Source of the DNA: Dehalococcoidia bacterium
GTDB lineage: Bacteria > Chloroflexota > Dehalococcoidia > Lucifugimonadales > UBA1123
DNA length: 64,000 bases
Assembly (NCBI GenBank): GCA_965207355.1
Contig: OZ242284.1
Coordinates: 40,992 to 104,991 of the forward strand
Reading direction: 5' to 3'
The notes beneath the pieces are model-generated. The model did no database searches, was not told the DNA's origin, and was given only the letters and a program-made list of their open reading frames with translations. Both the position numbers and the translations under genes were made by a program. Shown here piece by piece: positions 931 to 24,091 of this stretch (positions are counted from its first letter, which is position 1; each line of letters opens with the position of its first letter).

Positions 931-2793
931 TTATCTCAGCACCCTCACGTCCCCGACTCGCCGCGTGACCCGCACGTGGTCAAGATGGTCCATCAGCGCG
1001 AGCGCGTACTTGCGACTCGTTCCCAGAAGATCGCGCACGTCCGCCACTGTGATTTCCCCGTTCCGGTTGAGGTACTCCGATATCCTATCAACCATCTCAC
1101 CGTAGGCCGAAGCGGAAAAGACCACGCTCTCGCTCACTTTTACAACCTGCCCCCTCTCGTCCAGCAGGTTCACCACTTCCGGGTCTATCACGATGTCTGT
1201 GGGCGGCGAGAACGGATCGGAATCAAGTTGGCCCAGGTAGTCGTCAACCATCTCGCGCTGCGCGTCCCCAATGCTGGGTGTATGGTCCGGCAGGCGCGCC
1301 GTCGAGCCATCCTCGACCGTAACGCCGCTCTCGTTCAGAATCCTCAGAACGTCGTTGAACACCTGTGGGGACAGTTTCAGACGGGAGCGAAGCTCCTCCT
1401 TGGGTGGACCGGCGCGCAGCGGATACTGGTCGTGATAGTCTCCCAGCGCGGAGCGCGTCCGTTTGGTGAGCGAGCTCCAGCCCTGAGCCGTGTAGAACCT
1501 GGTCGCGCGGTTGATGCCGCCGCTGCCAAGCGCGATAACCCCGCCGTCCGAGACCATCCGCTCAAGCTCCGCCCTCGCCGTATCCGCGTTCATGTTCGCT
1601 CGGTTGACCATTGCCCCGAACTCCGCCGGCTCCAGGCCCTCGATAGTCTTCAGCAGCACCTCCCGGTCGTCCCCGCGCTCCATGATCTCCAGACGCTCGA
1701 TGGTCGGCCTGTGACGCCTGCGAGGGCGTGGAGCGTGCGTGTCCACTATGTTGCCGCCGCCCAGCGTGGTCATATTCGAGCGGATGACGAAGTAGTCCCC
1801 CTTGGCCACGGCTATCGGATTGTCCAGCTTGAGCTGCGCCCATGCGCTGTCGCCGGGGATTACGCTGTCCTCCTCGAACAGCCGCAGCCGCGCAACCGAC
1901 TCGCTCGACCCGGTATGCACAGTCACGAACATATTGTGCCTGAGCGGGTTCGGAGCGTCCGACAGCACGCGCAGGCGAACGTCGAATGCGGTCGTGGGAC
2001 GCAGCCAGCGGGGAAGCGTCAGCACCTCGCCGCGCGAAATCTCGTCGTGTGATACACCTATCAGGTTGGCGGCCACACGTGTGCCGGGCTCCGCGCGGTC
2101 CACCTTGCTCTTGTGTGTCTGGATACCGCGAATGCGGGTGCTCTGTCCCGAAACGGTCAGTTCCACGTCCTGGCCGATATCCAAGTATCCGTCTATCAGC
2201 GTGCCGGTCACCACCGTGCCGAAGCCCGTTATCGTGAAGGATCGGTCTATCGGCAGACGGGGCCGACCGAGGTCGCGCTTGGCCGGGATGTCGCTCAGCA
2301 TCGCTTCGATGGCCGCAACGAGCTCCGGCAGACCCTCGCCCGTCTGCGCCGACACGGGAATGATGGACGCGCCCTCCAGCACAGTGCCTCCAAGCGTGTC
2401 CTCCACGTCGGCGGTCACCAGCTCTATCCACTCCTCGTCAACCAGGTCGCGCTTGGTGAGCGCGACCAGCCCCCTGGGTATCTGGAGAAGGTCCAGGATG
2501 GCGAGGTGTTCGCGCGTCTGCGGCATCACCGACTCGTCCGCCGCCACCACCAGCATCGCCAGGTCAATTCCGCCCACACCGGCCAGCATATTGTTCACGA
2601 ACCGCTCATGCCCGGGGACGTCCACGATGCTAATCTCGTTGCCGCTCGGCAGTTCCAGCCAGGCGAACCCCAGGTCTATCGTCAGCCCGCGCTCCTTCTC
2701 CTCCGCCAGGCGGTCCGGGTCTATCCCCGTCAGCGCCTGGACGAGAGTGGACTTGCCGTGGTCAACGTGGCCTGCCGTGCCAACAACGAACAT
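931..2793 (-). CDS. selB: selenocysteine-specific translation elongation factor SelB
   Basis: 620 aa. GTPase motifs [17 protein letters not shown] and TKRD, followed by a long winged-helix-type C-terminal half ending '...[12 protein letters not shown]', typical of SelB. Confidence 0.88.
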
Positions 2794-3220: not shown

Positions 3221-3374
3221 CGAAGAGGCCCGCCGCTCGGTAATCCTGCTTCGGACCGAGACTTTCTGAAGTTCTCAGTTCAGCGAGCTTCTTGATGAAC
3301 TGAGTGATGCCCTGATAGGGTATCGTATCTATGATGCTTGGCAGCGCAAGTTGGGAGCACAAAGGAGTGGGGCG

Positions 3375-3575
3375 ATGACAACCGTTTCCGAACTACAGCA
3401 GGCTATACTGGAACTGTCCGAGGACGACTACTCCGAGCTGCGCCGCTGGCTGCTCGATCAGGAGTGGGAACGATGGGAGAGGGAATTCGACGAGGACGTA
3501 AGGGCCGGCAAGCTAGATGATTTGGCATCCCAGGCATTGGAAGCCAAGGCAAGAGGCAACCTGAAGGATCTATAA
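3375..3575 (+). CDS. putative antitoxin of a RelE/ParE-type type II TA pair
   Basis: 66 aa counted from 'MTTVSELQQAILELSEDDY...', with AAGGAG 6-7 nt upstream of the ATG at 3375. Acidic protein with an 'EWERWEREFDEDVRAGKLDDLASQAL' pattern. Its stop abuts the toxin start. Confidence 0.6.
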   Translation: MTTVSELQQAILELSEDDYSELRRWLLDQEWERWEREFDEDVRAGKLDDLASQALEAKARGNLKDL

Positions 3576-3830
3576 TTGCACAGGGCAGACCCGCATTTCT
3601 GGCGGCGATTCGAGGAGTTGCCTCCCACAGTGCAACGGATAGCTCGTCGAAACTTCGATCTATTAAAAGGGAATCCTAGGCATCCGTCTTTGAGATTCCG
3701 AAATGTTGGACGCTACTGGTCTGCGCGAGTGGGTGCTGCCCATAGAGCGGTCGCATTCAAATATGGCGACGACTTCATCTGGTTCTGGGTCGGCGACCAC
3801 GACGAGTATCTGAGGGTTATTCGTGGGTAG
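3576..3830 (+). CDS. RelE/ParE-family toxin
   Basis: 84 aa. 'F..LKGNPRHPSLRFRNVGRYWSARVGAAHRAVAF..GDDFIWFWVGDHDEY' matches the usual RelE/ParE/HigB-like signature. TTG start immediately after the antitoxin TAA. Confidence 0.7.
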   Translation: MHRADPHFWRRFEELPPTVQRIARRNFDLLKGNPRHPSLRFRNVGRYWSARVGAAHRAVAFKYGDDFIWFWVGDHDEYLRVIRG

Positions 3831-3990
3831 TACACGCTCCACAGTTTCTTCATCGAGGAACTCAAAGAAGAAACTGACTACCCCTACGAGGAACCTTGAT
3901 CACTGGATACCAAAAACTGACAACTAACAACTTCATAGTCCCTCGCAATTGTATTAGAATGAGTTCAACTCCAACACGCGGGCGCGGGGA

Positions 3991-4695
3991 ATGTCGTCTA
4001 TCAGGGACCTATACGACCTTCAGCTTCTCGACTGGGACATCCAGAATCGCGAGGTGGAGTTGGCCGACATCCGCGCGAAATTGGCCGACGACTCCATGAG
4101 GCTGAACGCTAGGCGTCAACTCGATGCGCTCGAAAACAAGATGGCTGGGCTCGCCAGGCCCAGGAGACAGACCGAGAACACCGTCGAGGACATCGAGCGG
4201 AGGATAGCGGATATCGAAAGCCGGCTATACGACGGATCGGTCACCAATCCCCGGGAACTGGAGGCATACCAGGAAGAGCGAACAAACCTGACGCAGAATC
4301 GCGGCGAGGCTGAGGACAGGCTGCTCGAGATTATGATCGAGAGCGACGACACGCAGGCCCTTCTGGACAAGGCAAGGGAACTGTTCGAGCGCATAGACGA
4401 CGAGCGTACCCGAGAGGTAGCGAGTCTCCGGTCTCGACATGCCGAGGTCTCCTCCGAACTTCCCGACTTCATCGAACGCAGGGGGGAATTGGTGTCGGAG
4501 CACGCCCCGATGACCCTTGCCATCTACGAACAGGTGAGGCAGCTCAGGGGCGGACAGGGCGCGGCCCTCGTTGACAGGCGCGGCCTGTGCCAGGGGTGCA
4601 GGCTAGTCATACCCACCACCGAACTCCAGAAAGTGCGCGCCGGAGACCAGATAGTCCAGTGTGGAAGCTGCTCCCGAATCCTGATCCTCGAATGA
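3991..4695 (+). CDS. zinc-ribbon/coiled-coil protein (COG1579 / DUF164-like)
   Basis: 234 aa. Long coiled coil, then a C4 ribbon 'CQGCRLVIP...QCGSCSRIL'. Confidence 0.7.
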   Translation: MSSIRDLYDLQLLDWDIQNREVELADIRAKLADDSMRLNARRQLDALENKMAGLARPRRQTENTVEDIERRIADIESRLYDGSVTNPRELEAYQEERTNLTQNRGEAEDRLLEIMIESDDTQALLDKARELFERIDDERTREVASLRSRHAEVSSELPDFIERRGELVSEHAPMTLAIYEQVRQLRGGQGAALVDRRGLCQGCRLVIPTTELQKVRAGDQIVQCGSCSRILILE

Positions 4696-11246: not shown

Positions 11247-12221
11247 CTAGGCATACACATTCTTATAGAGATCGTCGAGTTCCGGGAACGGACTCTCGCG
11301 GGCGAACCTGACCACCTCGTCCATCTCGTCCGCGACCTGGGAGTCTATCTCCTCCAGTTCCCCGGCTGTGATGAGTCCCTCTCCGATAGCGAGCGTCTTG
11401 AAGCGGTCAATCGGGTCGTTGATTCTCCACTCCTCCACCTCGTCCATTTCCCTGTAATTCACCGGGTCGGCCATGGAGTGTCCGCGATACCGGTACGTCA
11501 TGGCCTCCAGGAACACGGGGCCGTTGCCGGACCGTACTCGATCAATTGCGTAGGAGGTTGCCTCGCGCACCGCTATGAGGTCCATTCCGTCAACCTGTGT
11601 CGCGGGAATCTTGTAGTACTCGGCGGAGTTGTAGATGTCCCGCCCGGCGGCGTGTGTCATGTCCACGTGCGAGCCCATGCCGTACAGGTTATTTTCCAGC
11701 ATGAAAACGACGGGCAGCTTCCATAGGGAAGCGAGGTTGAGCGACTCGTGGAACTCTCCTTCGTTTACCGCGCCGTCGCCGAAGAAGACCATGACCACGC
11801 CGTTCTGCTTCTTCATCTTGATGCCCAGGGCCATGCCCACGCCAATCGGCATCTGTCCTCCGACGATAGCGTGGCCGCCCATGAAGTGGAGATTCGCGTC
11901 GAACAGGTGCATCGAGCCGCCCTTGCCGCCGCTGGAGCCCGTTGCCCTTCCGCAGAGCTCCGCCATGCAGGCTTTGGGGTCCATGCCGCGAGCGAGCGCA
12001 TGTCCATGGTCGCGGTAATGAGTGATGACGTAGTCCTGCGGCTCCAATAGGCTGATAGCCCCGACCGCCACGGCCTCTTCTCCTATGTACAGATGGAGAA
12101 AGCCACGGATAAGACCCTGCATATAGAGCCTGCCGCTGGCCTCTTCGAACCGTCGGATGAGAAGCATCTTCCGGTAGAAGTCGGCCACCTGCGCCTTGTC
12201 TATATTTATAGCTACTTTCAT
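11247..12221 (-). CDS. 2-oxoacid (pyruvate/acetoin-type) dehydrogenase E1 component, alpha subunit
   Basis: 324 aa. ThDP-binding 'GDGAVNEGEFHESLNLASLWKLPVVFMLENN' and 'YRYRGHSMADP'. Confidence 0.9.
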   Translation of the reverse strand: MKVAINIDKAQVADFYRKMLLIRRFEEASGRLYMQGLIRGFLHLYIGEEAVAVGAISLLEPQDYVITHYRDHGHALARGMDPKACMAELCGRATGSSGGKGGSMHLFDANLHFMGGHAIVGGQMPIGVGMALGIKMKKQNGVVMVFFGDGAVNEGEFHESLNLASLWKLPVVFMLENNLYGMGSHVDMTHAAGRDIYNSAEYYKIPATQVDGMDLIAVREATSYAIDRVRSGNGPVFLEAMTYRYRGHSMADPVNYREMDEVEEWRINDPIDRFKTLAIGEGLITAGELEEIDSQVADEMDEVVRFARESPFPELDDLYKNVYA

Positions 12222-12264
12222 AGACTTCCTCAGTCAGTTGGCTTTTACCGTCACTTATATATTG

Positions 12265-12321
12265 AAAATCCCCTCTTCTTTATCCCCTCTCCCTCTGGGA
12301 GAGGGCTAGGGTGAGGGTGAA
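12265..12321 (+). repeat. REP-like element, family A (half copy plus full copy)
   Basis: 'aaaatcccctcttctttatcccctctccctctgggagagggctagggtgagggtgaa', between the E3 and E1alpha cistrons. Confidence 0.9.
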
Positions 12322-12358
12322 CTGCAATCCACTCCTTCCAAGCGAGTAAGTCCCATTG

Positions 12359-13741
12359 TCAGATATGTATCGCCTCGCCCTCCGCGGCGAGAGCGGCCTC
12401 CTTGACCGTCTCGGAGATTGTCGGATGCGGATGTACCAGCCAGCCAAGCTCGGTCGTGGTCGCCTCGAGCAACTTCGTCATTCCGAGTTCGCCGAGCAGT
12501 TCCGTAACTTCGGCCCCTATCATGTGCGCGCCCAGAATCTCCCCGATTTCCTCGTCAACCACCAGCTTCACCATGCCCTCGGACTCGTTCATCGCAAGCG
12601 CCTTGCCACTGGCGGCCATGGGAAAGCGGCCCACCTTGACCGGATAGCCCTGCTCCCTCGCCTGGGCCTCGGTCAGGCCGAAGCTCGCCACCTGTGGTCG
12701 GCAGTATATGGCCCTGGGTATCTGGACATAGTCCAGCGGCTGTGGGTCGAGGCCGGCAATGCACTCGACAGCCGTTACGCCCTGTGCGGACGCAACGTGC
12801 GCCAGCAGCATCTTTCCGGTAACGTCGCCTATCGCGTAGATGTTTGGGACGTTTGTGCGCATGGAATCGTCAACTGGTATGAATCCGCGTTCGGTACGGA
12901 CGCCCGCGGCTTCCAGGCCGATGCCCGCGGTGTTGCCCTGCACTCCCACCGCCACCAGTACCTTGTCACACTCTTCTACCATGTTCTCCGTGTCGGTCGA
13001 GATCGACACCCGGGCTGAACTGCCGTTCACCGAGATACCCTCCACCTGAGCCCCGGTAACGCTCTTGATGCCCTGCCGTCTGAATGAACGTTCGAGTTGA
13101 TCGCTTATCTCTTCGTCCTCGTTGGGAATGAGGCGCGGCATTAGCTCGACCATAGTGACATCCGCGCCGTAGGAACTCCATACATATGCGAATTCGCAGC
13201 CGGTAGCGCCGCCACCGACTATCACAACCCGGCCTGGGACCTCTCGGAGTTCAAGCGCCTCGCGGCTGGTGATGACGGTCTCGTGGTCTATCGGCAGACC
13301 CGGAATGTCTCTCTGGCTCGCGCCGGTGGCTACTATGATGTGATTCGCCGACACCAAGCTGCCGTCTTCGGTGATGCGGACGGTGTTCGCGTCCTGAAGG
13401 ACTCCCGTCCCCTGGATGTGGTCCACCTTATTCTTGCGCAGCAGCGATCCGACTCCACGGGTCAGCCGACCGACGACCGTGCGACTGCGGTCAATCGCCT
13501 TCCCGAAGTCCGGGTTCACGTCGCCGACGCCGATGCCGTACTCGTCGGCGTGTCGGATGATGCTGAGCACCTCGGCATTTCGGAGAAGGGCCTTGGATGG
13601 GATACATCCCCAGTTGAGGCAGATACCGCCAAGAGTGTCCCTCTCGACGACCGCCGTCCTCATACCCAACTGTCCGGCGCGAATTGCGGCTACATATCCC
13701 CCCGGACCTGAGCCGAGAACCAATACATCATATTCAGGCAA
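12359..13741 (-). CDS. lpdA: dihydrolipoyl dehydrogenase (E3)
   Basis: 460 aa. 'GSGPGGYVAAIRAGQLG', redox disulfide 'CLNWGCIPSK', C-terminal 'HPHPTISE'. Confidence 0.92.
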   Translation of the reverse strand: MPEYDVLVLGSGPGGYVAAIRAGQLGMRTAVVERDTLGGICLNWGCIPSKALLRNAEVLSIIRHADEYGIGVGDVNPDFGKAIDRSRTVVGRLTRGVGSLLRKNKVDHIQGTGVLQDANTVRITEDGSLVSANHIIVATGASQRDIPGLPIDHETVITSREALELREVPGRVVIVGGGATGCEFAYVWSSYGADVTMVELMPRLIPNEDEEISDQLERSFRRQGIKSVTGAQVEGISVNGSSARVSISTDTENMVEECDKVLVAVGVQGNTAGIGLEAAGVRTERGFIPVDDSMRTNVPNIYAIGDVTGKMLLAHVASAQGVTAVECIAGLDPQPLDYVQIPRAIYCRPQVASFGLTEAQAREQGYPVKVGRFPMAASGKALAMNESEGMVKLVVDEEIGEILGAHMIGAEVTELLGELGMTKLLEATTTELGWLVHPHPTISETVKEAALAAEGEAIHI

Positions 13742-14228
13742 CGACGAACCTCTTGAATAGTCTTATCATGGTCGTCCAAACGACCCAAACCATTCTACAC
13801 CAAACCGACGAGCCATAAAAGTTTGAGAAACGCCGCCGCGCCGGATCCGCCCTGGCAGCTGTTGCGCGCAAGCGCAGAAATCCCTTCCCCTTCAGATTCG
13901 TCGGTTCGGGCGAGATCATAAATTGTTCTTTATAATTTACTGGTGGGGTTACAAGTGAGTTTCCAAGTGGGACAGGATGCGAGTCACGTGGAAAGTGACC
14001 TGTTATCACCTGTTGTTAGCTACGGACCGAAAAATTTTCTTCGGCGGATTCATTTTTGATAATCTCTTGTTTATGCACCGAATGCCCGGAGCGGCGTTTT
14101 CCACGCGCCCATTATAGCGGACGGAATATATGTTCGTCTAGGGAGAGCGGAAGTCGGAATATACAAGAGAGGGAGCCCAGGCGCAGAGCTTCAGATCCGA
14201 TTGCCCTGAGGGTGTCTCAGTGGGATTT

Positions 14229-14645
14229 CTACCAGTCCGACGACACCTCATAGAACAGAAGGCGCTTCCGCCCGAAGTCGTAGTCCATTCGCATACGATT
14301 CAGTATGTTCACTCCCAATAGAGATTCCAAATCATCCGTCTCCTCGGATGGCTTCCCAACCGAGAGGATTATTCTGAACCTGTAGATTCTGTCGGCTCCC
14401 CGAAAAGATATATCGGCTGGTTCATCGTAGTAGATTTGTTCTCCGCCAACGCCGCTCATCCTGATCGGATTCTCCAGTTCGTCAAATGGAAAGTTGATGG
14501 TTTCGCTATCATCGGGACCTAGCGTGGTAACATCGGCTCCGGTGTCAACCAGAAAATCAACATACTCGCCGACGCCAAAACGGGGCAGATATACATACCC
14601 CCGCAGATAGGCGTGACCGTCCGACTTGAAAAATCCGTATATCAC
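14229..14645 (-). CDS. retropepsin-like (clan AA) aspartic protease
   Basis: 138 aa. Catalytic 'FLVDTGADVTTL' and 'LLGVNILNRMRMDYDF' near the C-terminus. GTG start overlaps the res stop (GTGA at 14642-14645). Confidence 0.7.
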   Translation of the reverse strand: MIYGFFKSDGHAYLRGYVYLPRFGVGEYVDFLVDTGADVTTLGPDDSETINFPFDELENPIRMSGVGGEQIYYDEPADISFRGADRIYRFRIILSVGKPSEETDDLESLLGVNILNRMRMDYDFGRKRLLFYEVSSDW

Positions 14646-17575
14646 AGGGGCCTCCGGTTGAACGGTGTCCGTATAACCTTGCGGCCCGGCGCCCGTATAA
14701 ATCTTCTGGCTACGTCGGATCGGTCTATTCCCAACTCATCCAGCTTGGCGAGGAGTTCCTTGGTAGACTCCGCGACAATCGCTTCCCCGCTGTCCGGCAT
14801 CGCAATCCACCTGTCCGGGTATTTCTCCACCAGGTCGTGATACTGATCCTCAATGAGCTTATGAAGCTCCTCAGCTCTGATGAATCCTTCGATCAGGACA
14901 GACTCGCCGCCCATCTTCTCAAGCCATTCAGGCATCTGTCTCCGTATTTCGTTATCTGACTTTTCCGCAACCATCATCTCCCTCCATCGCGCGGAAGGCA
15001 GACTGAACGCTTGAACGATGTCCGCGAACCTATGGGCGGGGATGTCTGAGTAATCTATCTGCGCCACTTTCACAAACCGCCAGGGTATCCCTGTGAGCGT
15101 GGATGCGTTGGCGCACCAGATATTGGCCGCCCTGTCTTTGTTGGCTACGTTGGTATCCTCCATGCCTTTGGTCTCAATAAGGTAATGTTGACGGTCGGGG
15201 CCAACCGCCACGAAGTCCGGGTAGTAATGGCGGATGTTACCAGTATTGGCGATGTACTGAATCTTGAAACCCAGGCGCAGGGGAATCTTGGCGAATCTGA
15301 CAATATCGGGGGCAGATTCCAGGAAACGAGCGAACCCGGCCTCGAACTCGTTATCCGCCGCGACCAGGTTGAACACGGTCTTGGACGCCAGGCAGGTAGG
15401 GCGCGACCACGGGAAAGGCTCGGTGTCGGATAGCCGGAACGGGGCAGACAGAAGAACGGGTTCCAGTTCCTGGCGCAGCAGCGGGCGTATAGCGCGAGCG
15501 AAGCCCTGCACGGTGAGAAAGCCGATGCCCGGCCTGGCCAGAATCGGGGCAAGCGAGTTGTCTTCGAGGTCAACCGGCTGTCCGAAAGCCCGACGCGCGA
15601 AGAATTCCCGCAGCTTATCCACGATGATGTCGAAATGACCGGGCAGATTCGTTTCCCTGCTGATTCGGGTGGCGTAGTAGCTGATTACTTCGCCGCAGGT
15701 GTTGGGACTCGGCAATTGATAAGTGCGCGCAAGCAACTCTTCGTCCGTGAGCGCGTCCAATCCCAGGTACTCGAACGATGTATCATCCCACGCTTCCAGG
15801 CTGAACGGCAGATTATCCACCTGAACAGTATCTATATTCAGTTTGGATATTTCCTCGCGTGTGTCGCTCCTGCGTTCATAGGCAGGCGATATGTTTGGAA
15901 TAGCGATGTCCATGTCTATCTTGTCCGTGTCGGGATAGATGGATACGATGACTATCGGCTTCTGGTCAATCTTCTCTGTCGGCAGCGCGACGTCCTCTAT
16001 CTTCTCTAGGTCCGCCACGAACTCCATGAACTTCTCGGTTCCGATGATGTCCACTCGTTCACGATAGCCGCTCTCCACGCCCGCTTCACCCGGGAACATA
16101 AGCCGCAATCCGCGTCCAATCGCCTGCTCCGGCAGTATATTGGCTTTGGAACTATAGGGACGCAGCCCCAATACGACCGTGACGTTGCGAACGTCCCACC
16201 CTTCCCTCAGCATCATGACGCTGATTACGGCGTTGATAGCGCTATCGTCGGAATCTATGTCTTTGACTATCTCACGAGCCTTTTGCAGATCCCCAACCCT
16301 GGTCTTGGATGTGCTGAACTCGCCGTTGTTGTTGGTATGGATAACCTGCAACTTGCCATCGCCGAAATACGCTGGGTAGGTCTGTCGCAGATACTCGCCC
16401 ACGTTGTCCGCGTCTCTGGAACGCTCGAGCATGGCGAAAAGCACGGGCCTCTTGTTCAGAGGTTTTAGCTGGTCTCGATATTCCTGCCAGCGATTCACGG
16501 CCGCGGTTATGTATGCTCCGTAGTGGACGGATGCGTCAGCCGACTCCACTTCCCCGGCCCCGCTTATCTCTCCTCGAATAGGCTGCTTCACTATCCCGTC
16601 CTCTATGGCCGCCCTGAGCGGATAGTCGTATATAGTCCATGGAAACAAGGTCCCGTCGTTGAAGCGCGGCGTGGCGGAAAAGTCCAGCTGCGCCATGAAG
16701 CGCTTACCGCCCAGACGCTCGCGCAATCCCCGAATTGTCTGGTTCCAGGCCGAATCCTCGTCGTGAGTATGGTGCGCCTCGTCGTTGATTACCATTAGCG
16801 GCGCTCGTCTCCGCACTATCCTGTCATCGAAATCGTCGCGCTCGTCAGGCATATCACTGGCTGTCGGCCCCAGCAGGTCGGCTATTGGCACGGGTGGGCC
16901 GCTTGCGCGTCTTCCGCTTCTCCGGGGAGCGTCGTACAACTGCTGTACGTTGGTCAGATACACTGCGCCATGCGAAGAGAGATCAGCGCGGTCCCCACGC
17001 ATGAAGAACCGGACATCGCCCCACTCATCGCTGTACTCGGGCGGGATGATTGGTAGGTGGCGGAACAACGACCCGCCCGCGAAGTCCCCCTGGAGCCGCT
17101 CGAATACTATGACGTTCGGCGCTATTATCAGAAAACTGGTCGCGTACTCATCGCAATCCGGTTCGTTCACCGCGTTGAGATAACTCCACGCCACGCACAG
17201 CGCCATTACCATCGTCTTGCCGCTGCCCGTTGCCATCTTGACACCGTAGCGCGCGAAGTCGCCATACTGAAGCAGCCGGACATCGGGATTGGGCAGGAAC
17301 GCTTCAAGCAGCGTCCTGTTATCCCGCCGCTTCATAACCTCATAGACGTAAATCAGCGACTCGACCGCCTCGCGCTGCGCATCGTAGAACGCGAATGGTT
17401 TGCCCTCAACCTCGTGGTCGGTATCGAACCACCACTCCAGCAGTCGCTTTGTCGTGTCGGTCGCGCTAGGATAACCCGCGTCGCGCCACTCGCGGACGGC
17501 GGACGCTACCGCCGGGGCGCAAGTGGCCGCTAGGTTGTCGGCGGCGAGAGACTCAGTCAGCAGTTGCCGAGTCAT
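14642..17575 (-). CDS. res: Type III restriction endonuclease, Res subunit, with extra C-terminal domain
   Basis: 977 aa. SF2 helicase motifs 'ATGSGKT', 'INDEAHH', 'MLREGWDVRNV', 'QAIGRGLR'. PD-(D/E)xK nuclease 'YYPDFVAV...YLIETKG'. About 120 further residues follow the nuclease. Confidence 0.9.
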   Translation of the reverse strand: MTRQLLTESLAADNLAATCAPAVASAVREWRDAGYPSATDTTKRLLEWWFDTDHEVEGKPFAFYDAQREAVESLIYVYEVMKRRDNRTLLEAFLPNPDVRLLQYGDFARYGVKMATGSGKTMVMALCVAWSYLNAVNEPDCDEYATSFLIIAPNVIVFERLQGDFAGGSLFRHLPIIPPEYSDEWGDVRFFMRGDRADLSSHGAVYLTNVQQLYDAPRRSGRRASGPPVPIADLLGPTASDMPDERDDFDDRIVRRRAPLMVINDEAHHTHDEDSAWNQTIRGLRERLGGKRFMAQLDFSATPRFNDGTLFPWTIYDYPLRAAIEDGIVKQPIRGEISGAGEVESADASVHYGAYITAAVNRWQEYRDQLKPLNKRPVLFAMLERSRDADNVGEYLRQTYPAYFGDGKLQVIHTNNNGEFSTSKTRVGDLQKAREIVKDIDSDDSAINAVISVMMLREGWDVRNVTVVLGLRPYSSKANILPEQAIGRGLRLMFPGEAGVESGYRERVDIIGTEKFMEFVADLEKIEDVALPTEKIDQKPIVIVSIYPDTDKIDMDIAIPNISPAYERRSDTREEISKLNIDTVQVDNLPFSLEAWDDTSFEYLGLDALTDEELLARTYQLPSPNTCGEVISYYATRISRETNLPGHFDIIVDKLREFFARRAFGQPVDLEDNSLAPILARPGIGFLTVQGFARAIRPLLRQELEPVLLSAPFRLSDTEPFPWSRPTCLASKTVFNLVAADNEFEAGFARFLESAPDIVRFAKIPLRLGFKIQYIANTGNIRHYYPDFVAVGPDRQHYLIETKGMEDTNVANKDRAANIWCANASTLTGIPWRFVKVAQIDYSDIPAHRFADIVQAFSLPSARWREMMVAEKSDNEIRRQMPEWLEKMGGESVLIEGFIRAEELHKLIEDQYHDLVEKYPDRWIAMPDSGEAIVAESTKELLAKLDELGIDRSDVARRFIRAPGRKVIRTPFNRRPL

Positions 17576-19539
17576 GTCTTCACCTCCAGTCGGCGCGTGG
17601 TGTCGTTGCCTAATATGTCTATCACCTTCACCACGATGGTATGACCGTCGCCGCTGTCATACTCGTGCCGGGCGTTCAAACGAAGCTGAGACTCCTGCCG
17701 TGTCCGGTAGCTCTGCCACTGGTTGTTAAACGTATCCTCGTGGTAGTCCCAGTCCACCGCCCAGTAGTCAATCCACTGAGACCAGTGCGTGACCTTCTCA
17801 CGAACCTCGCTCGGAACGTCGCCCAGAGGCATCGTGAAGTCTTCCAGAGTCAGCGAAACCTCCCGACGCTTGACCTTCGTCTCCACCGCTAGCGCCGCAA
17901 GCTCGAAGAAGCGAATATCGCCCGCGTCAACCGCTTTCCTGTCCATCACCTCGCGCGGTATTCGCAGAAGGCGAACGCCGACGCCCGCTGTGTCCGCTAT
18001 CCGACGCGCCTCAGTGTCCACCTCCAGCCCGTAGTCCCAACTCAGAATATCCACGCCGCGCGATGTTGGCGCCTCTTTGCCGTTTCCGGCGACACTTGAA
18101 AATTCATCAACGACGTTCTGGATGTCGCCCAGCGCCACCGGTGAATCCACCGCGCCTACGTGAACCAGCCGTCCCGATTTCGCCCCATGCAGCCACTGGT
18201 AGCCGCTCACCGGATTAGCGCGATACATCTGAAGGATGAACTCGCGGTAGGGACGCTCCAAGTCCTCGGACTGCCAAGCCTGCCTCTCGTAACGGCCCAT
18301 GTTCTGAACATGGAATGGTTTGACATCGGGAATATCCAGTAGACGTTTGCGGGAAGTGGATATTGCGAACCGGCCCATGTCGGCAGCAATCCAGCGCCGC
18401 CCCAACTTTTCTGCGACCGCGGCAGTCGTGCCGGACCCGATGAAACAGTCCAGCACCAGATCATCTTTGTTGGATGAGGCTTTCATGATGCGTTCGATTA
18501 AGGCTTCTGGCTTTTGGGTAGGGTAGGTGAGGCGCTCAACAGATGTATTCCCGACTCTATGGACATCGGTCCATAGAGTCTGAGCCTTCTGACCAGGGTT
18601 ATCATCGAGGTAAGTTATTCGACCCCGCATTTTGGCGTTGCCATTACGCGCTAATTCAATTCTACCCTCAGCCAACATCCTCTCAAGGGTGCCTCTGTCA
18701 TAAGCCCATGAACGGGACTGGCTAGGCCTTACTCCTCGCCATTCAAATTGCCGATTGGGAGTTGCACCTGGCGCAGTTAGATCGTCAGTTTTGTAATATC
18801 GCCCTTCCTTGTCTTTGCGATATTCTTTCAATTCAGTCGAAGATAATGTGTGATAGACCTGGTTCCAAACTGCGGACGGGGATTTAACATAGAATAGAAT
18901 GTAATCGACTATTTGCCCGAACTTCTTAGTGACAGCATTGTTGGAACTTTGACGTTTCCATACGATCTCATTTCTGAAGTTCTCGTATCCGAAAATATCG
19001 TCCATCACTGCTTTGGTGTAATGGCTGGTTCTCCAGTCGCAATGAACATAAATGGACCCTGACTCCGAGAGCAGTTCGTGCAGCAGAGTTAGCGTCTCGT
19101 ACATCCACTTGAGATATGTGTCCAGCCCACCTCCCCAAGTATCCCGATAGGCTATCTGCTCTATCAGGTTGGGCTGGTACTCTAGAGTCAGGTTAGAATT
19201 TCGGTTTCTGCCCCTCCCTGTAATATGGTCTGTCTTTGCTGGATGTACTTGAGCTTGGTATTCGAAATTTGCGCCAGTGGCGAATGGTGGATCAATATAG
19301 ATGAGGTTAACCTTACCTGCGAATTTGTCCAGCAGGGACGGGAGCACATACTTCTTGTCGCCCCAGATGAGGCGGTTGCGCCACTCGGAGTCTCCCCGGT
19401 GGGGTGCGGTCAGGGCCATCTGGCGTTCTTGCGCTGACTGGTTGACCGTCTCCACCGTCTGGAACGGCAACGACACACGCGGCGGCCCAACGATCTGCCC
19501 GTTGTCGTCGTACTTGCCTTCCCATATCAATTCCGGCAT
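17572..19539 (-). CDS. mod: Type III DNA methyltransferase, Mod subunit (beta-class N6A/N4C)
   Basis: 655 aa. Motif IV 'LIYIDPPF' precedes motif I 'CFIGSGTTAAVAEKLGRRWIAADM'. The stop overlaps the res start (ATGA at 17572-17575). Confidence 0.9.
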   Translation of the reverse strand: MPELIWEGKYDDNGQIVGPPRVSLPFQTVETVNQSAQERQMALTAPHRGDSEWRNRLIWGDKKYVLPSLLDKFAGKVNLIYIDPPFATGANFEYQAQVHPAKTDHITGRGRNRNSNLTLEYQPNLIEQIAYRDTWGGGLDTYLKWMYETLTLLHELLSESGSIYVHCDWRTSHYTKAVMDDIFGYENFRNEIVWKRQSSNNAVTKKFGQIVDYILFYVKSPSAVWNQVYHTLSSTELKEYRKDKEGRYYKTDDLTAPGATPNRQFEWRGVRPSQSRSWAYDRGTLERMLAEGRIELARNGNAKMRGRITYLDDNPGQKAQTLWTDVHRVGNTSVERLTYPTQKPEALIERIMKASSNKDDLVLDCFIGSGTTAAVAEKLGRRWIAADMGRFAISTSRKRLLDIPDVKPFHVQNMGRYERQAWQSEDLERPYREFILQMYRANPVSGYQWLHGAKSGRLVHVGAVDSPVALGDIQNVVDEFSSVAGNGKEAPTSRGVDILSWDYGLEVDTEARRIADTAGVGVRLLRIPREVMDRKAVDAGDIRFFELAALAVETKVKRREVSLTLEDFTMPLGDVPSEVREKVTHWSQWIDYWAVDWDYHEDTFNNQWQSYRTRQESQLRLNARHEYDSGDGHTIVVKVIDILGNDTTRRLEVKT

Positions 19540-19828
19540 CGGACCTCTCCCTCAAATCTGTCCACGATTAGTTATAACGCACGATTCGCATTTTACACCA
19601 CCCCGATATTTCATACATAGGCGGAGCTAAAGCTGTATTACATGTTTGGCGTGGAGCGATGCAGTGATGCTTGATCCCCTCCCTTCCTCAACACATTCGT
19701 TCTGTGCTACAATTCCACCATCAAAACAAGCCGAACAGACCGAACAGACATAAATTAAAACTTATGGCAAAGGCTCATGGGGCCAAAGAAAAATTTTCCC
19801 CAAAGCTAACGCAGGCGAATCTCTGGTG

Positions 19829-19857
19829 CCTAACAGGTGTTCTAATCACCTGTTAGG
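19829..19857. promoter_or_regulatory. perfect 11-bp inverted repeat (possible operator) upstream of mod
   Basis: 'cctaacaggtg-ttctaat-cacctgttagg'. Further CACCTGTT/CGCCTGT words follow up to 19900. Confidence 0.4.
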
Positions 19858-20074
19858 CGCCTGTCGGTCACCAGTTAAGCCACCTGTTGCCGCCTGTGGC
19901 TTTATAAACGAAAGTATATAACCGAGCGAATCCGTCCAATAGAATGGCCGACTTCGCAAAACCCTGACAGTTCACGAATTTCACATATGAAGGCTCACAA
20001 AGATAGACAAATATGCGATCATCTCAACAGATCCCCTCTCCCTCAGGGCTTACAAGGGTTGGTAAATGTTCAAT

Positions 20075-20154
20075 CAGCTACGAACTCCAGTCAATAGATC
20101 CCCTCTCCCTCAGGGAGAGGGCTAGGGTGAGGGTGAAAACCTACCCCTCTCAGC
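20075..20154 (+). repeat. REP-like element, family A (extended ~80-nt form)
   Basis: 'cagctacgaactccagtcaatagatcccctctccctcagggagagggctagggtgagggtgaaaacctacccctctcagc'. A truncated half copy lies at 20031-20049. Confidence 0.9.
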
Positions 20155-20172
20155 TATATTTAGGAGAAGACA

Positions 20173-21033
20173 ATGACAACACGAACTCCCACGATTGACT
20201 CTCAGGTACACGCCTACGAGCGCGACAGCGCCGAACGCCCCTGGCAGGGCCACCTAACCGGACCGGAGGAGGTAACCGGAGACGACATGGTCGCCGCGAT
20301 GGACGCCGTCGGCGTGGATGGCGCGCTGCTCGTCTCCCCCTACTCCATGTATCGCTTCGACGCCAGCTACGCCCTGGAGGTTTACGCGAAGCACGCCGGC
20401 AAATTCGGCCTGATAAGGCCGTTCGACCCCGAGTCCGACACGATAGAGGACGACATGGCCGAGTGGACCGGAACGCCCGGCGTGGTCGGTGCGCGCATCA
20501 TGCTCAGCTACGGCACTTACACGGCAGACCATCCCGGCCTGAACCGCATACTCGCCGCCGGCGGTCAAGCCGGTGTACCGATAAACGTCATGAGTTCGGG
20601 CCACCTCCCGCTGCTGCGCGAACTCGCCCTGCGGAATTCCGGCACCCGGATAGTCATAGACCACCTCGGAATACCCCAGCCCTTTGAGCCGCCCGTGCCT
20701 CCGGACCCGTTCGCCGACCTGGACAGCGTTGTGGCAATGGCGGAACTGGATAACGTGGTCATCAAGATATCTGGGGCCTGCACGCTGTCGCATGAGCCGT
20801 TCCCGTACCCCGACATCTGGGAGCCCCTGGGCAAGATATTCGAGGCGTTCGGCCTGGAGCGGTGTATGTGGGGCACGGACTGGACGAGGGCGATCAACAT
20901 GCTGAACTACGAACAGGGCGTCGAGTCCTTCCGCGTCACGGATAGCCTCAGCGATTCGGAGCGCGCGACGCTGATGGGCGGAGCCTTATCGAACATCTAC
21001 AACTGGTCCCCGGACGTTGGCTCACAAGGGTAG
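20173..21033 (+). CDS. amidohydrolase-2 family metal-dependent hydrolase
   Basis: 286 aa. 'IDSQVHAY' N-terminal His motif, 'IDHLG', 'WGTDW'. Confidence 0.78.
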   Translation: MTTRTPTIDSQVHAYERDSAERPWQGHLTGPEEVTGDDMVAAMDAVGVDGALLVSPYSMYRFDASYALEVYAKHAGKFGLIRPFDPESDTIEDDMAEWTGTPGVVGARIMLSYGTYTADHPGLNRILAAGGQAGVPINVMSSGHLPLLRELALRNSGTRIVIDHLGIPQPFEPPVPPDPFADLDSVVAMAELDNVVIKISGACTLSHEPFPYPDIWEPLGKIFEAFGLERCMWGTDWTRAINMLNYEQGVESFRVTDSLSDSERATLMGGALSNIYNWSPDVGSQG

Positions 21034-21046
21034 GTGAATTTGCAGC

Positions 21047-21127
21047 CAGCTACGAACTCCGGACGATAGATCCCCTCTCCCTCTGGGAGAGGGCTAGGGT
21101 GAGGGTGAAATACCTCCCTCTCTCAGC
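21047..21127 (+). repeat. REP-like element, family A (extended ~80-nt form)
   Basis: 'cagctacgaactccggacgatagatcccctctccctctgggagagggctagggtgagggtgaaatacctccctctctcagc', a direct repeat of 20075-20154. Confidence 0.9.
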
Positions 21128-21175
21128 CTGAGATTGGCGGGGTATATTCACCCCGGGCACAGCGTAAAGCGACAG

Positions 21176-24091
21176 TCAGGCCAGCGCGTCTGCCAGAACC
21201 TCGACGAGATGGCGCGCGTGCTTGTCCGTGCCTTGCGCAATCTGCTGCCGGCACGAGACGCCCTCGGCGACCACAGTGAAGTCGCCTTCCTGGTTTCGTA
21301 TCGTGGGGAAGAGCGACATCTCACCTATCTGCATCGAAATGTCGTAGTGCTCGGTCTCGTAACCGAAGCTGCCCGCCATTCCGCAGCAGCCGGAGTTGAT
21401 TTCGACCGTCTCGCAGCCCTCAATGGACCGCAGGGCGCTCAGCGCCTGCCCAGTCCCGACTCGCGCCTTCTGGTGGCAGTGGCCGTGGAAGAGAATCTTG
21501 CTCGGCAGCCTGGATCCGTCCAGATCGAGTTCCGCGCCTTGTTCCAGCGCGTGGGCGACGAACTGCTCGACCAGCATCGTGTTCTCGGCTATCTTCTCAG
21601 CTCTGTCCGAGTCGTCGGGAACCAGGTCCGCGTACTCGTCGGCGAAGCTGAGGATGCAGCTCGGTTCGAGTCCGACCAGCTTGGCGCCCGATTCCACATA
21701 TTCATATATGGAGCCGATGTTGTAGCGGGCGTTCTCCTTTGCCTTGTCCAGCATACCCTTCGACATCATAGGTCGGCCGCAGCAGCGGACTTTTGGAAGG
21801 ACGACCTGGTATCCGAGCGCTTCCATGACCTTGACCGCGGCCCTGCCGAGTTCCGGGTGGTTGTAGTTGGTGAAGGTGTCTGGGAACAAAACCACCTGTC
21901 CGAGCCGGTTGGCGGAGTCGGGCGAACCACCTCGCGTCCTGAACCACTGCACGAAAGTCTGGCTGGCGAACGGCGGCAGTTCGCGCCTGCTGTCAATTCC
22001 AACCTGGGTCTCCAGCAAACGCCGTGCCATGGGCAGCTTGTTGGCCCAGTTGGAGAAGGGCGCGAAGAAAGCCCCGAACTTGCTAAACGCGGCTATGTTG
22101 CCGAAGAACTGGTTGCGCAGGGGCAGACCGTTCGTCTTGTGATACTGGTTCAGGAACTCGTACTTGAGCTTCGCCATGTCCACGTTAGACGGGCACTCGG
22201 CGGCGCATCCCTTGCATTCCAGGCACAGATCAAGCACGTCGTACAGCCGCTTGTCTGTGAGCGAGTCCGCGGGAAGCGCCCCTGAGAGTGCGGCCCTGAG
22301 CGCGTTGGCCCTGCCCCGCGTAGAGTGTTCCTCCTCGCGTGTCGCCATGAAGGACGGGCACATCGTGCCGCCGAGCGTCTTGCGACACGCTCCCTGACCG
22401 TTGCACATCTCTATGCCGTGCGCGAAACTTCCCTCCGAACCGAAGCCGAAGCCGGTGTTTAGCTGAATCGGATTGTACTCAGGGCCGATCCGCAGATTCT
22501 CAGTCATCGGCTGGGAGTCAACAATCTTGCCCGGGTTCATTATTCCGTTCGGATCGAACGTCCGCTTGACGTCCCGGAACGCCTCGTAGAGCTGGTCGCC
22601 GAACATCTTACGATTGAACCAACTGCGGACGAGGCCGTCGCCGTGTTCGCCGCTCATAGAGCCACCGTACTCCATCACGAGGTCGCCGACTTCCTCAGCT
22701 ATCGAGACCATGCGGTCCACATCCTCCTGGCTCTTCGGGTTAATTAGTGGGCGAATGTGCAGGCAACCGACGCTGGCGTGTCCGTAGTATCCGGCTTCCG
22801 TGCCGTGCGATGTAACTATCTCATCGAATTTGCGGACGAAGTCAGGCAGGTGTTCCGGCGAGACGGCGGTGTCCTCGACGAAGGGCAGCGGCTTGGCGTC
22901 GCCGGGAACGTTCATCATGAGTCCCAGGCCTGCCTTGCGAACGTCCCATACCTTGTTCTGGTCTTCGGGGCGCAGCATTCTGAGGAATGTGTAGCCCAGA
23001 TTTCTGCCGGAGAATATCGCCCCCAGGTTGACGAGCTTGGATATGACCTCGTCCTGGCTGTCGCCGACGACCTCGATGGCCAGCAGCGCCTCCGGGTCGC
23101 CGTCTATGAAGTCGGTAATGCGCGAGTAGGCCAGATTGGACTTCGCTTGGCGGATTATCATGGAGCCGATGAGCTCGACTGCGGCGGGCTGGAAGTCGAG
23201 CGCGACCACCGTAGCTTCCATGGATTCGAGCAGATCAGCGCAGTGTAGCACGCCGAGCGCGGTGAACTTGGGCCTTGGAACCAGGTTGAGCTTGGCCTCG
23301 GTTATCGTTACCAGTGTGCCTTCGGAGCCTACGACGAAGCGCGCCATATCGAAGCCCATCCCGCCCACGAACTCGTCCAGGTTGTAGCCTGACACTCGCC
23401 GCTGTATCTTGGGATAGCGAGCAATGATCTCGTCGCGGTTGGCCTCTCCGATTTGGAACAAGCCGCGATATATATCACCTTCCAGTCCCTCCCCACGCAT
23501 CCTGGCTTCTAGCTGAGCGCCGTCCAGCCCTCCGAACCGCGTGGGCGTGCCGTCGGAGAGCACGACGTCGAGTTCGCGTACGTTATCCACGGTCTTGCCC
23601 CACATTATCGAGTGCGCCCCGCAGGAGTTGTTTCCAAGCGCGCCGCCCACGTTTCCGCGGTTCGACGTGGAAGGGTCCGGCGCGAACAGCAGGCCGGTGT
23701 CGCGAAGCTCATGGTTCAGAACATCCAGGACTATGCCGGGCTGGGTGCGTACCCAGTGCTCTTCATGGTTGACCTCGATGACGTTGTGCATATACTTGGA
23801 GAAGTCCATGACGATGGAATGACCGACAGTCTGACCGCCGAGGCTGGTGCCGCCTCCCCTGGGTAGGACGGATACGCCGTATTTGTTGGCGGTCTCCACG
23901 ACGGCTATGACGTCCTCTGGGGTGCGTGGAATGACCACTCCTATCGGCTCGATTTCATAGATGCTCGCGTCCGTCGAGTAGAGGACGCGGCTCATCTTGT
24001 CGAACCTCACCTCACCCGATACCAGCTTGTTGAGGTCCTCGACCATTTCCCTGGTATCGGATTCTTTGACCTGGGCTGTCATTCGCTTCAC
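21176..24091 (-). CDS. FAD-binding oxidase fused to Fe-S/CCG domains (YdiJ / GlcD-GlcF fusion type)
   Basis: 971 aa. PCMH FAD domain 'PRGGGTSLGGQ', 4Fe-4S 'CLECKGCAAECP', CCG motifs 'CCGRPM' and 'CCGMAGSFGYE'. Confidence 0.85.
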   Translation of the reverse strand: MKRMTAQVKESDTREMVEDLNKLVSGEVRFDKMSRVLYSTDASIYEIEPIGVVIPRTPEDVIAVVETANKYGVSVLPRGGGTSLGGQTVGHSIVMDFSKYMHNVIEVNHEEHWVRTQPGIVLDVLNHELRDTGLLFAPDPSTSNRGNVGGALGNNSCGAHSIMWGKTVDNVRELDVVLSDGTPTRFGGLDGAQLEARMRGEGLEGDIYRGLFQIGEANRDEIIARYPKIQRRVSGYNLDEFVGGMGFDMARFVVGSEGTLVTITEAKLNLVPRPKFTALGVLHCADLLESMEATVVALDFQPAAVELIGSMIIRQAKSNLAYSRITDFIDGDPEALLAIEVVGDSQDEVISKLVNLGAIFSGRNLGYTFLRMLRPEDQNKVWDVRKAGLGLMMNVPGDAKPLPFVEDTAVSPEHLPDFVRKFDEIVTSHGTEAGYYGHASVGCLHIRPLINPKSQEDVDRMVSIAEEVGDLVMEYGGSMSGEHGDGLVRSWFNRKMFGDQLYEAFRDVKRTFDPNGIMNPGKIVDSQPMTENLRIGPEYNPIQLNTGFGFGSEGSFAHGIEMCNGQGACRKTLGGTMCPSFMATREEEHSTRGRANALRAALSGALPADSLTDKRLYDVLDLCLECKGCAAECPSNVDMAKLKYEFLNQYHKTNGLPLRNQFFGNIAAFSKFGAFFAPFSNWANKLPMARRLLETQVGIDSRRELPPFASQTFVQWFRTRGGSPDSANRLGQVVLFPDTFTNYNHPELGRAAVKVMEALGYQVVLPKVRCCGRPMMSKGMLDKAKENARYNIGSIYEYVESGAKLVGLEPSCILSFADEYADLVPDDSDRAEKIAENTMLVEQFVAHALEQGAELDLDGSRLPSKILFHGHCHQKARVGTGQALSALRSIEGCETVEINSGCCGMAGSFGYETEHYDISMQIGEMSLFPTIRNQEGDFTVVAEGVSCRQQIAQGTDKHARHLVEVLADALA

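Follow-up and report, generated by a model that had tools for sequence, protein, structure and literature searches.

An in-frame fusion of a DUF5678-family gene to the res gene of a Type III restriction-modification system in a Dehalococcoidia bacterium

We have analysed a stretch of 64,000 nucleotides (nt) of contig OZ242284.1 (assembly GCA_965207355.1) from a Dehalococcoidia bacterium, the whole of which is called the window below. On its minus strand lies a Type III restriction-modification (R-M) system in which the res open reading frame (ORF) is stop-free for 977 amino acids (aa; 14642-17575 in the ORF list) and continues past the usual end of the Res protein into the whole of a second gene. 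This is a small gene of the DUF5678 family, of a kind that elsewhere stands alone and is followed by an overlapping gene for a retropepsin-like aspartic protease. That the first gene of such a pair is fused in frame to Res while the second remains as the next cistron had been proposed by an earlier reading made from the letters of the DNA (the sequence-only reading), and is borne out by the ORFs, by the junction between the two genes and by the orthologues of each. The existence of the tail and of the fusion is confirmed, and the structural interpretation placed upon them is supported. We think it probable, with fair assurance, that the first gene of a resident cassette was welded to res by a rearrangement, and that the event is a recent one, most likely neutral or no more than mildly tolerated.

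The natural end of Res

The closest homologue of Res is P0016 (859 aa; 85% identical by BLASTP), and the two proteins are colinear. The alignment ends at R863 of the window protein, corresponding to R859, the final residue of P0016. Because the colinear homologue ends there, we place the natural end of Res at R863. The natural res coding sequence thus comprises residues 1-863 (14987-17575, minus strand), with CGA (R863) as its last codon and no stop of its own. The sequence-only reading took Res to end at ...VQAF, but the alignment with P0016 gives ...VQAFSLPSAR, ten residues past that estimate. The DNA of the P0016 locus (L006) reads ...GTTCAAGCGTTCAGTCTGCCTTCTGCTCGG-TAA, i.e. a stop codon is present after res. 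At the same site the window reads ...GTTCAAGCGTTCAGTCTGCCTTCCGCGCGA-TGG AGG GAG ATG ATG GTT..., with no stop. The true addition is 114 aa (14645-14986), comprising a 4-aa linker WREM and a whole 110-aa gene. A C-terminal tail of about 120 aa had been suggested at 14645-15004; the addition is real, but that size is a little too large.

A search for homologues using Res residues 640-977 as query gave 782 proteins at E <= 1e-5, of which the best 120 were listed. The 119 listed proteins other than that of the window are mostly 850-860 aa in length. They span 59-74% of the query region (nearly all 63-67%), and every one of them ends at the position of R863. The norm of this subfamily is to end shortly after the nuclease domain at about 850-860 aa; the window protein has 977 aa. 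As the sequence-only reading had anticipated, the tail is absent from ordinary Res C-termini, since none of the other homologues among these best 120 of 782 carries it. A further search, with residues 864-977 as query, covered those proteins of 537-1710 aa that have words in common with the tail (5.8 billion clusters). Only the window's own protein was found, and this 977-aa protein is a single-member cluster.

The tail could in principle be a C-terminal domain that is normal for this Res subfamily but variable. The reading frame is unbroken, and we find nothing else in favour of that view, whose probability we put close to nil. All 119 other listed homologues terminate at the R863 position, and independent 110-aa genes, each with a leader and a start codon of its own, match the tail at 78-93% identity. 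The idea of an ordinary Res domain is refuted by the lengths of the homologues, the search among large proteins and the alignment with P0016. On these comparisons the tail is to be regarded as an addition, and not as a domain of Res.

The tail is a complete partner gene of the DUF5678 family

Searching with the 120-aa stretch found 14 proteins, of which 11 are exactly 110 aa in length and 78-93% identical to it. All 11 orthologues (P0001-P0011) begin MVAEK..., corresponding to Res residue 868. By comparison with these stand-alone proteins the window holds a complete 110-aa gene (the partner gene; 14642-14974, minus strand, Res residues 868-977) that starts MVAEKSDNE, with the DUF5678 core at about 14735-14836.

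The motif quoted in the sequence-only reading is present in the tail. The same reading called the tail DUF5678-like, and this stands by way of paralogues and a family profile, although the tail taken alone falls below threshold. It scores 15.0 bits (E 0.022) against PF18929 (DUF5678), where the Pfam cut-off is 23.2, and has no match in NCBIfam. The orthologue P0001 is likewise under the cut-off at 18.5 bits, the range for the window's subfamily being 15-18.8 bits. P0001 does, however, match two paralogous loci in the same genome, L008 and L009 (E 1.8e-9 and 4.4e-9), whose products of 103 and 107 aa score 30.4 and 24.1 bits on DUF5678, i.e. above the cut-off. Each of these two partner genes is followed by an overlapping gene for a protease with the DTGA motif. 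With a profile built from this family, 1035 clusters are found at E <= 1e-3 among 1.84 billion representatives, nearly all of them stand-alone proteins of 75-130 aa. DUF5678 is matched at E <= 0.01 by 124 of the 149 family members tested (best 5.5e-32). Membership of the tail in the DUF5678 family is thus supported by transitive and profile homology.

Sequence conservation in the family reaches the last residue in nearly every member. The C-terminal end in the window's subfamily is 8 residues longer, and reads ...RTPFNRRPL. In an AlphaFold2 (AF2) model of the partner, which is of mediocre quality (pLDDT 65), residues 1-14 are disordered, residues 23-51 form a long helix, residues 55-93 have a beta-beta-alpha-beta arrangement, and the C-terminal end is again disordered. 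No match to this 110-aa model, with its pLDDT of 65, was found in the PDB by a fold search at E <= 0.001.

Two kinds of larger protein also contain this domain. In L020 (7-1656, minus strand) a CCA-adding enzyme/poly(A) polymerase-type protein (PolyA_pol and HD) begins with ~50 aa of DUF5678, which score 26.9 bits and so pass the cut-off. The same fusion is present in about 18 other Chloroflexota genomes, in frames of 549-594 aa, and is conserved across a Chloroflexota family. In L043 (1378-2811, minus strand) a 478-aa DUF362 protein has a DUF5678-like segment (22.3 bits) at its C-terminus.

The junction between res and the partner gene

Window 12001-23000 was compared with the fetched loci by blastn, which reveals two blocks of homology. 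The five loci L001-L005 match window 14201-14985/14986 with 89-93% nt identity (the module block, containing the partner and protease genes), while L006 matches 14988-18537 and 18958-19550 with 79% nt identity (the R-M block). R-M homology extends to 14988/14987 and module homology begins at 14986/14985, and the two blocks therefore abut at 14986/14987. This is the site of the junction (14986-14987), whether it was made by recombination or by deletion.

In the five relatives about 110 nt on the 5′ side of the partner ATG are conserved (L001:7880-8000, L002:7880-8000, L003:4130-4249, L004:7880-8000 and L005:1090-1211). This leader contains TGTGATAAT, which is similar to an extended -10 element, and ends GGGAGGCAGACG-ATG. 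It also holds a conserved 5′ untranslated region. Judged by these elements, the leader could be the promoter and operator of the module. The window retains only its last 12 nt (TGGAGGGAGATG), and all that lies further upstream is res. These 12 nt (14975-14986, minus strand), which are untranslated in the leaders of the relatives, now encode the linker W-R-E-M (Res residues 864-867). The Shine-Dalgarno sequence GGAGG (14981-14985) has been kept, 6 nt before the ATG at 14972-14974, and the spacing is identical in the relatives. Note that the window has no partner gene with its own start and leader of the stand-alone kind; the leader is deleted and the ORF fused, with the Shine-Dalgarno sequence and ATG preserved.

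From the switch of homology at 14986/14987 together with the shortened leader we infer that a rearrangement has removed both the stop codon of res and the promoter and leader of the module. The end points of the deletion may have shared a microhomology of T or TG.

The fusion is a real allele

Window 14917-15700 is found without a single difference in Logan contigs of two samples, namely those of three S1 runs, each 7798 nt long, and a 972-nt contig of one S2 run. S1 and S2 belong to the same study and may include the source data. In four runs of other studies the contigs related to the module part from the window at 14985 and run into the canonical leader, and those related to res part from it at 14986 and run on elsewhere; the joined form was not seen in these runs. 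The fusion is a real allele that was found only in this genome's population and study.

We have considered whether an error of assembly or consensus, be it a missed stop, a frameshift or a chimera, could have generated a false fusion. The genome was assembled from a metagenome as a single contig, its contamination is estimated at 6.4%, the fused protein has a cluster to itself, and the two samples come from the one study, one being perhaps the source data. Nevertheless the independent Logan contigs (three S1 runs and one S2 run) reproduce 14917-15700 without differences, and the joint is a clean switch between blocks of homology and not a homopolymer indel. Such an error is very improbable.

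In run X4, from the second sample, the module part 14366-14917 is found in short contigs at a depth of 3-4, and the contig spanning the res junction has a depth of 10. This suggests that S2 contains strain variants that have the joint in common but differ inside the module.

The module is the resident element

The order of genes around the module was compared in the relatives. In L003 the genes on the downstream side are those of the window (lpdA and PDH E1; 83% nt identity), and a different Type III system there points away from the module. L001 keeps the far flank of the window (the amidohydrolase side, 19702-23000), but the slot is filled by other genes and a different methyltransferase. 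This slot of 4.7 kb lies between the amidohydrolase flank and the module (window 14987-19702, compared with L001:3259-7990). In L001 it contains three ORFs without a Pfam family (474, 134 and 71 aa) and a 452-aa N6_N4 methyltransferase, and not a Type III system. L002 has an MmeI-like methyltransferase upstream of the module, and in L004 the module is accompanied by a further divergent Type III system. The neighbouring R-M gene differs in each relative, and the orthologous module adjoins R-M genes in five of six loci.

Because the synteny is constant at the module while the R-M content varies, the module is taken to be resident. The comparison of gene order shows the module as the constant edge of a variable R-M slot, with the R-M cassette as the incoming element, and the 4.7-kb slot looks like a hotspot of defence genes. 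The sequence-only reading had a two-gene module captured at this place. The module is indeed present with its first gene fused, but the synteny indicates that it was the R-M system that landed on a resident module.

The retropepsin-like protease

The protease gene (14229-14645, minus strand) encodes 138 aa with DTGA at residues 34-37. The protein scores 28.7 bits on Pfam Asp_protease_2 (cut-off 24.3) and matches PADLOC PDC-M08B (E 1.5e-8). Its AF2 model has a pLDDT of 92.7, and the best match found by Foldseek is the Rickettsia protease APRc (5c9f; E 2.7e-6, TM 0.61-0.71), followed by the FIV, HIV and RSV proteases. The protein belongs with the retropepsin-like enzymes of clan AA and is of the APRc type. 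It has in common with Rickettsia conorii APRc (RC1339) and the retroviral proteases (clan AA, A2-like) the single-lobe fold, the DTGA motif and LLG(V/R)(N/D). Unlike these, the window protease is a stand-alone cytoplasmic protein that has neither a membrane anchor nor a polyprotein context, and it is always paired with a DUF5678 gene.

Variants that have lost the protease but kept the partner come from three independent sources. In L001 (8330-8400) a deletion between ACGGAT microhomologies takes out the DTGA motif and leaves the partner intact. A similar loss of the protease with an intact partner is found in P0012, and a contig of run X10 skips window 14328-14631, which is most of the protease gene, where again the partner is intact. 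Such losses fit the protease being the harmful member of the pair. The dN/dS ratio is 0.2-0.6 for the partner and protease genes (moderate purifying selection), and the window copies are not outliers.

The partner-protease cassette is widespread

In L002-L005 the 110-aa gene is followed, with an overlap of 4 nt, by a 138-aa Asp_protease_2 gene that is orthologous to the window protease, so that four of the five orthologous loci have both partner and protease. More widely, of 301 Chloroflexota genomes sampled, 51 have a match to PF18929. Thirty Chloroflexota loci were fetched for a survey of pairing, and 21 have a DUF5678-like ORF by the family hidden Markov model. In 17 of the 21 loci the protease gene is directly downstream of the DUF5678 gene; it is an ORF on the same strand, 126-193 aa long and with D[TS]GA, whose start lies between -34 and +10 nt from the partner stop. 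Of 21 collected proteases, 19 match Asp_protease_2 at E <= 0.01. The same pair is present in an ANME-1 archaeon (L011) and in an Aerophobetes metagenome-assembled genome (L013). The view of the sequence-only reading, that stand-alone homologues of the tail adjoin small retropepsin-like proteases, agrees with the orthologous loci, the Chloroflexota survey and these two more distant cases.

The 3.44-Mb genome from which the window is taken has seven pairs of DUF5678 and protease genes. The six that lie elsewhere are found on G000:C1 at 653 kb (L008), 1050 kb (L047), 1565 kb (L009), 2108 kb (L045), 2480 kb (L046) and 3033 kb (L044). There are about six more retropepsin-like hits in the same genome, counted without regard to partners.

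We found DUF5678 cassettes to have no general association with R-M genes; of the 21 Chloroflexota loci, L014 alone adjoins one. In L014 a gene for a 222-aa N6_N4 DNA methyltransferase (1724-2392, minus strand) shares 7 nt with the start of the DUF5678 gene, after which comes a DTGA protease gene. This is a second, independent adjacency of a DNA methyltransferase and the cassette, in another Chloroflexota genome.

The window shares with other DUF5678 (PF18929) and retropepsin cassettes the small partner, the overlap of 4 nt, a DTGA protease of about 140 aa, the multiple copies and a family found in both Bacteria and Archaea. It differs from them in that the partner has lost its promoter and leader and sits on the C-terminus of a large enzyme. 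Our search of the literature brought up no paper in which DUF5678 or the retropepsin cassettes of prokaryotes are treated as modules of toxin-antitoxin or defence. The cassette is uncharacterised, and is apparently a widespread one.

Comparison may also be made with type II toxin-antitoxin systems (Phd-Doc, RelBE and VapBC). Like these, the window cassette consists of two small overlapping co-directional genes, exists as several diverged copies and occupies variable or insertion-prone sites, and in some strains the second gene is lost while the first is kept. Unlike them, it would have an aspartic protease as its putative toxin, and no DNA-binding domain is detected in the partner. No aspartic-protease toxin was found described in the literature searched. 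The likeness of the cassette to a type II toxin-antitoxin module is one of architecture only.

Membership of the PADLOC system PDC-M08 was considered in view of the match of the protease to PDC-M08B. However, the tail, its orthologues and its paralogues have no match to PDC-M08A, and 2 of the 149 family members match it, weakly. With the A component unmatched the assignment was rejected, and the PDLC04400 model finds nothing relevant in the genome.

Origin and consequence of the fusion

We propose that the cassette, encoding a 110-aa DUF5678 protein and a translationally coupled protease, was resident at the edge of the variable R-M slot, and that in this lineage a Type III mod-res cassette running in the same direction was brought up against it. 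Illegitimate recombination or deletion at 14986/14987 would then have removed the res stop, the cassette promoter and about 100 nt of leader, leaving the GGAGG and ATG of the cassette intact. The frames would have matched by chance, so that the 863-aa Res leads through the 4-aa linker into the partner to give a 977-aa product, and mod, res-partner and protease would now form a single operon with 4-nt overlaps. The free 110-aa partner is probably still translated beside the 977-aa fusion, because the Shine-Dalgarno sequence and ATG survive with the 6-nt spacing of the relatives. The cassette is most likely toxin-antitoxin-like, with the partner restraining the protease dimer, and the conserved free C-terminal end of the partner may help in this restraint. 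The fusion is then most likely not a designed tether, but recent and neutral or mildly tolerated.

A number of points weigh against this proposal. The joint persists in two samples, which indicates that it is tolerated but is compatible with a benefit too. DUF5678 is stably fused to other enzymes (the CCA-adding enzyme and the DUF362 protein), and thus functional fusions of the domain exist. Family searches found no DNA-binding family in the partner, for which the AF2 model is mediocre (pLDDT 65) and has no PDB match. The toxin-antitoxin view is drawn wholly from gene architecture, copy number and deletion patterns, and the 977-aa protein and/or the free partner are predictions from the DNA.

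The alternative is that the fusion is adaptive, having been selected to dock the protease on the restriction enzyme through the DUF5678 partner. The protease could then process or degrade Res as a means of restriction control, or could be freed as an abortive-infection effector when Res is attacked. The C-terminus of the partner, conserved to its last residue, remains free in the fusion, and the first ~14 residues of the partner are predicted to be disordered and would provide a flexible linker, so the fused domain could still engage the protease. DUF5678 accepts other heads and large fusion partners, the module adjoins R-M genes in most of the orthologous loci (5/6) and in L014 overlaps a DNA methyltransferase gene, and the joint has been kept in two samples. 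Yet the fusion is unique, with the tail present in no other Res homologue or large protein, and the junction falls at an arbitrary point in the module leader, resembling the scar of a deletion. Moreover, with the internal Shine-Dalgarno sequence and ATG retained, the free partner would compete with the fused form, and the usual neighbours of the module in Chloroflexota are not R-M genes. We consider selection for a tether to be unlikely. That Res and the protease are functionally tethered is a possibility, though an unsupported one, and it seems to us decidedly doubtful that Res acts as a 'head' of the DUF5678 partner with a retropepsin-like protease docked upon the restriction enzyme.

If docking did occur, the protease might trim or destroy the 977-aa Res, providing a built-in control of restriction with a logic like that of ClpXP-dependent alleviation, which acts on Type I enzymes. 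Alternatively, where phage anti-restriction factors damage or sequester Res, the protease might be freed as a second-line effector of abortive infection. It would be the first link of a restriction enzyme to a protease of the retroviral type, and through a functional tether restriction enzymes would be tied to control by a protease or to abortive infection.

Under the preferred reading, i.e. a chance rearrangement at a resident cassette, the fusion would be a clean case, resolved to the base pair, in which the swapping of defence cassettes at a hotspot has welded together two unrelated genes. It would also be a natural experiment on an uncharacterised cassette, in which the partner tolerates an N-terminal load of 96 kDa and the loss of its promoter. 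The fusion offers a ready-made construct for testing the binding of partner and protease.

The Type III system and neighbouring genes

The mod gene, the 977-aa ORF and the 138-aa ORF are all on the minus strand and are linked by overlaps of 4 nt. The stop of mod and the start of res overlap by 4 nt, and the GTG start of the protease gene overlaps the TGA of the fused ORF by the same amount. The mod gene (17572-19539, minus strand) encodes a Type III DNA methyltransferase of 655 aa (Pfam N6_N4_Mtase, E 5.2e-46; PADLOC MTase_III, E 1.6e-112). Res has a helicase region matching Pfam ResIII (PF04851) at residues 64-304 (52.8 bits, E 5.8e-14) and a PD-(D/E)xK nuclease matching PF19778 (RE_endonuc) at residues 732-824 (27.2 bits, cut-off 23.4), and is matched by PADLOC REase_III (E 1.7e-21). 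By these family matches Res and Mod are taken to be ordinary components of a Type III system. As in other Type III R-M systems (EcoP15I-type Mod/Res; NCBIfam BPTD_3080 family Res), mod precedes res with an overlap of 4 nt, and the window Res has a ResIII SF2 helicase and a C-terminal PD-(D/E)xK nuclease, with the 85% identity to an 859-aa Res noted above. Unlike those systems, the window Res lacks its own stop and has 114 extra residues that come from another gene, and no other member was found to be so extended.

Within mod a block at 18538-18957 has no nucleotide homology with L006, the closest R-M cassette, although both flanks match. The window Mod is 655 aa in length, against 525 aa in L006. 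The block is probably a swapped target-recognition region, which would give the window enzyme a different specificity.

L002 has at 3278-4123, 5 kb upstream of the module, a second, smaller Asp_protease_2 gene (120 aa, DTGS) and after it a gene for a Uma2-family endonuclease. Uma2 genes are also present on the 3′ side of res in L006.

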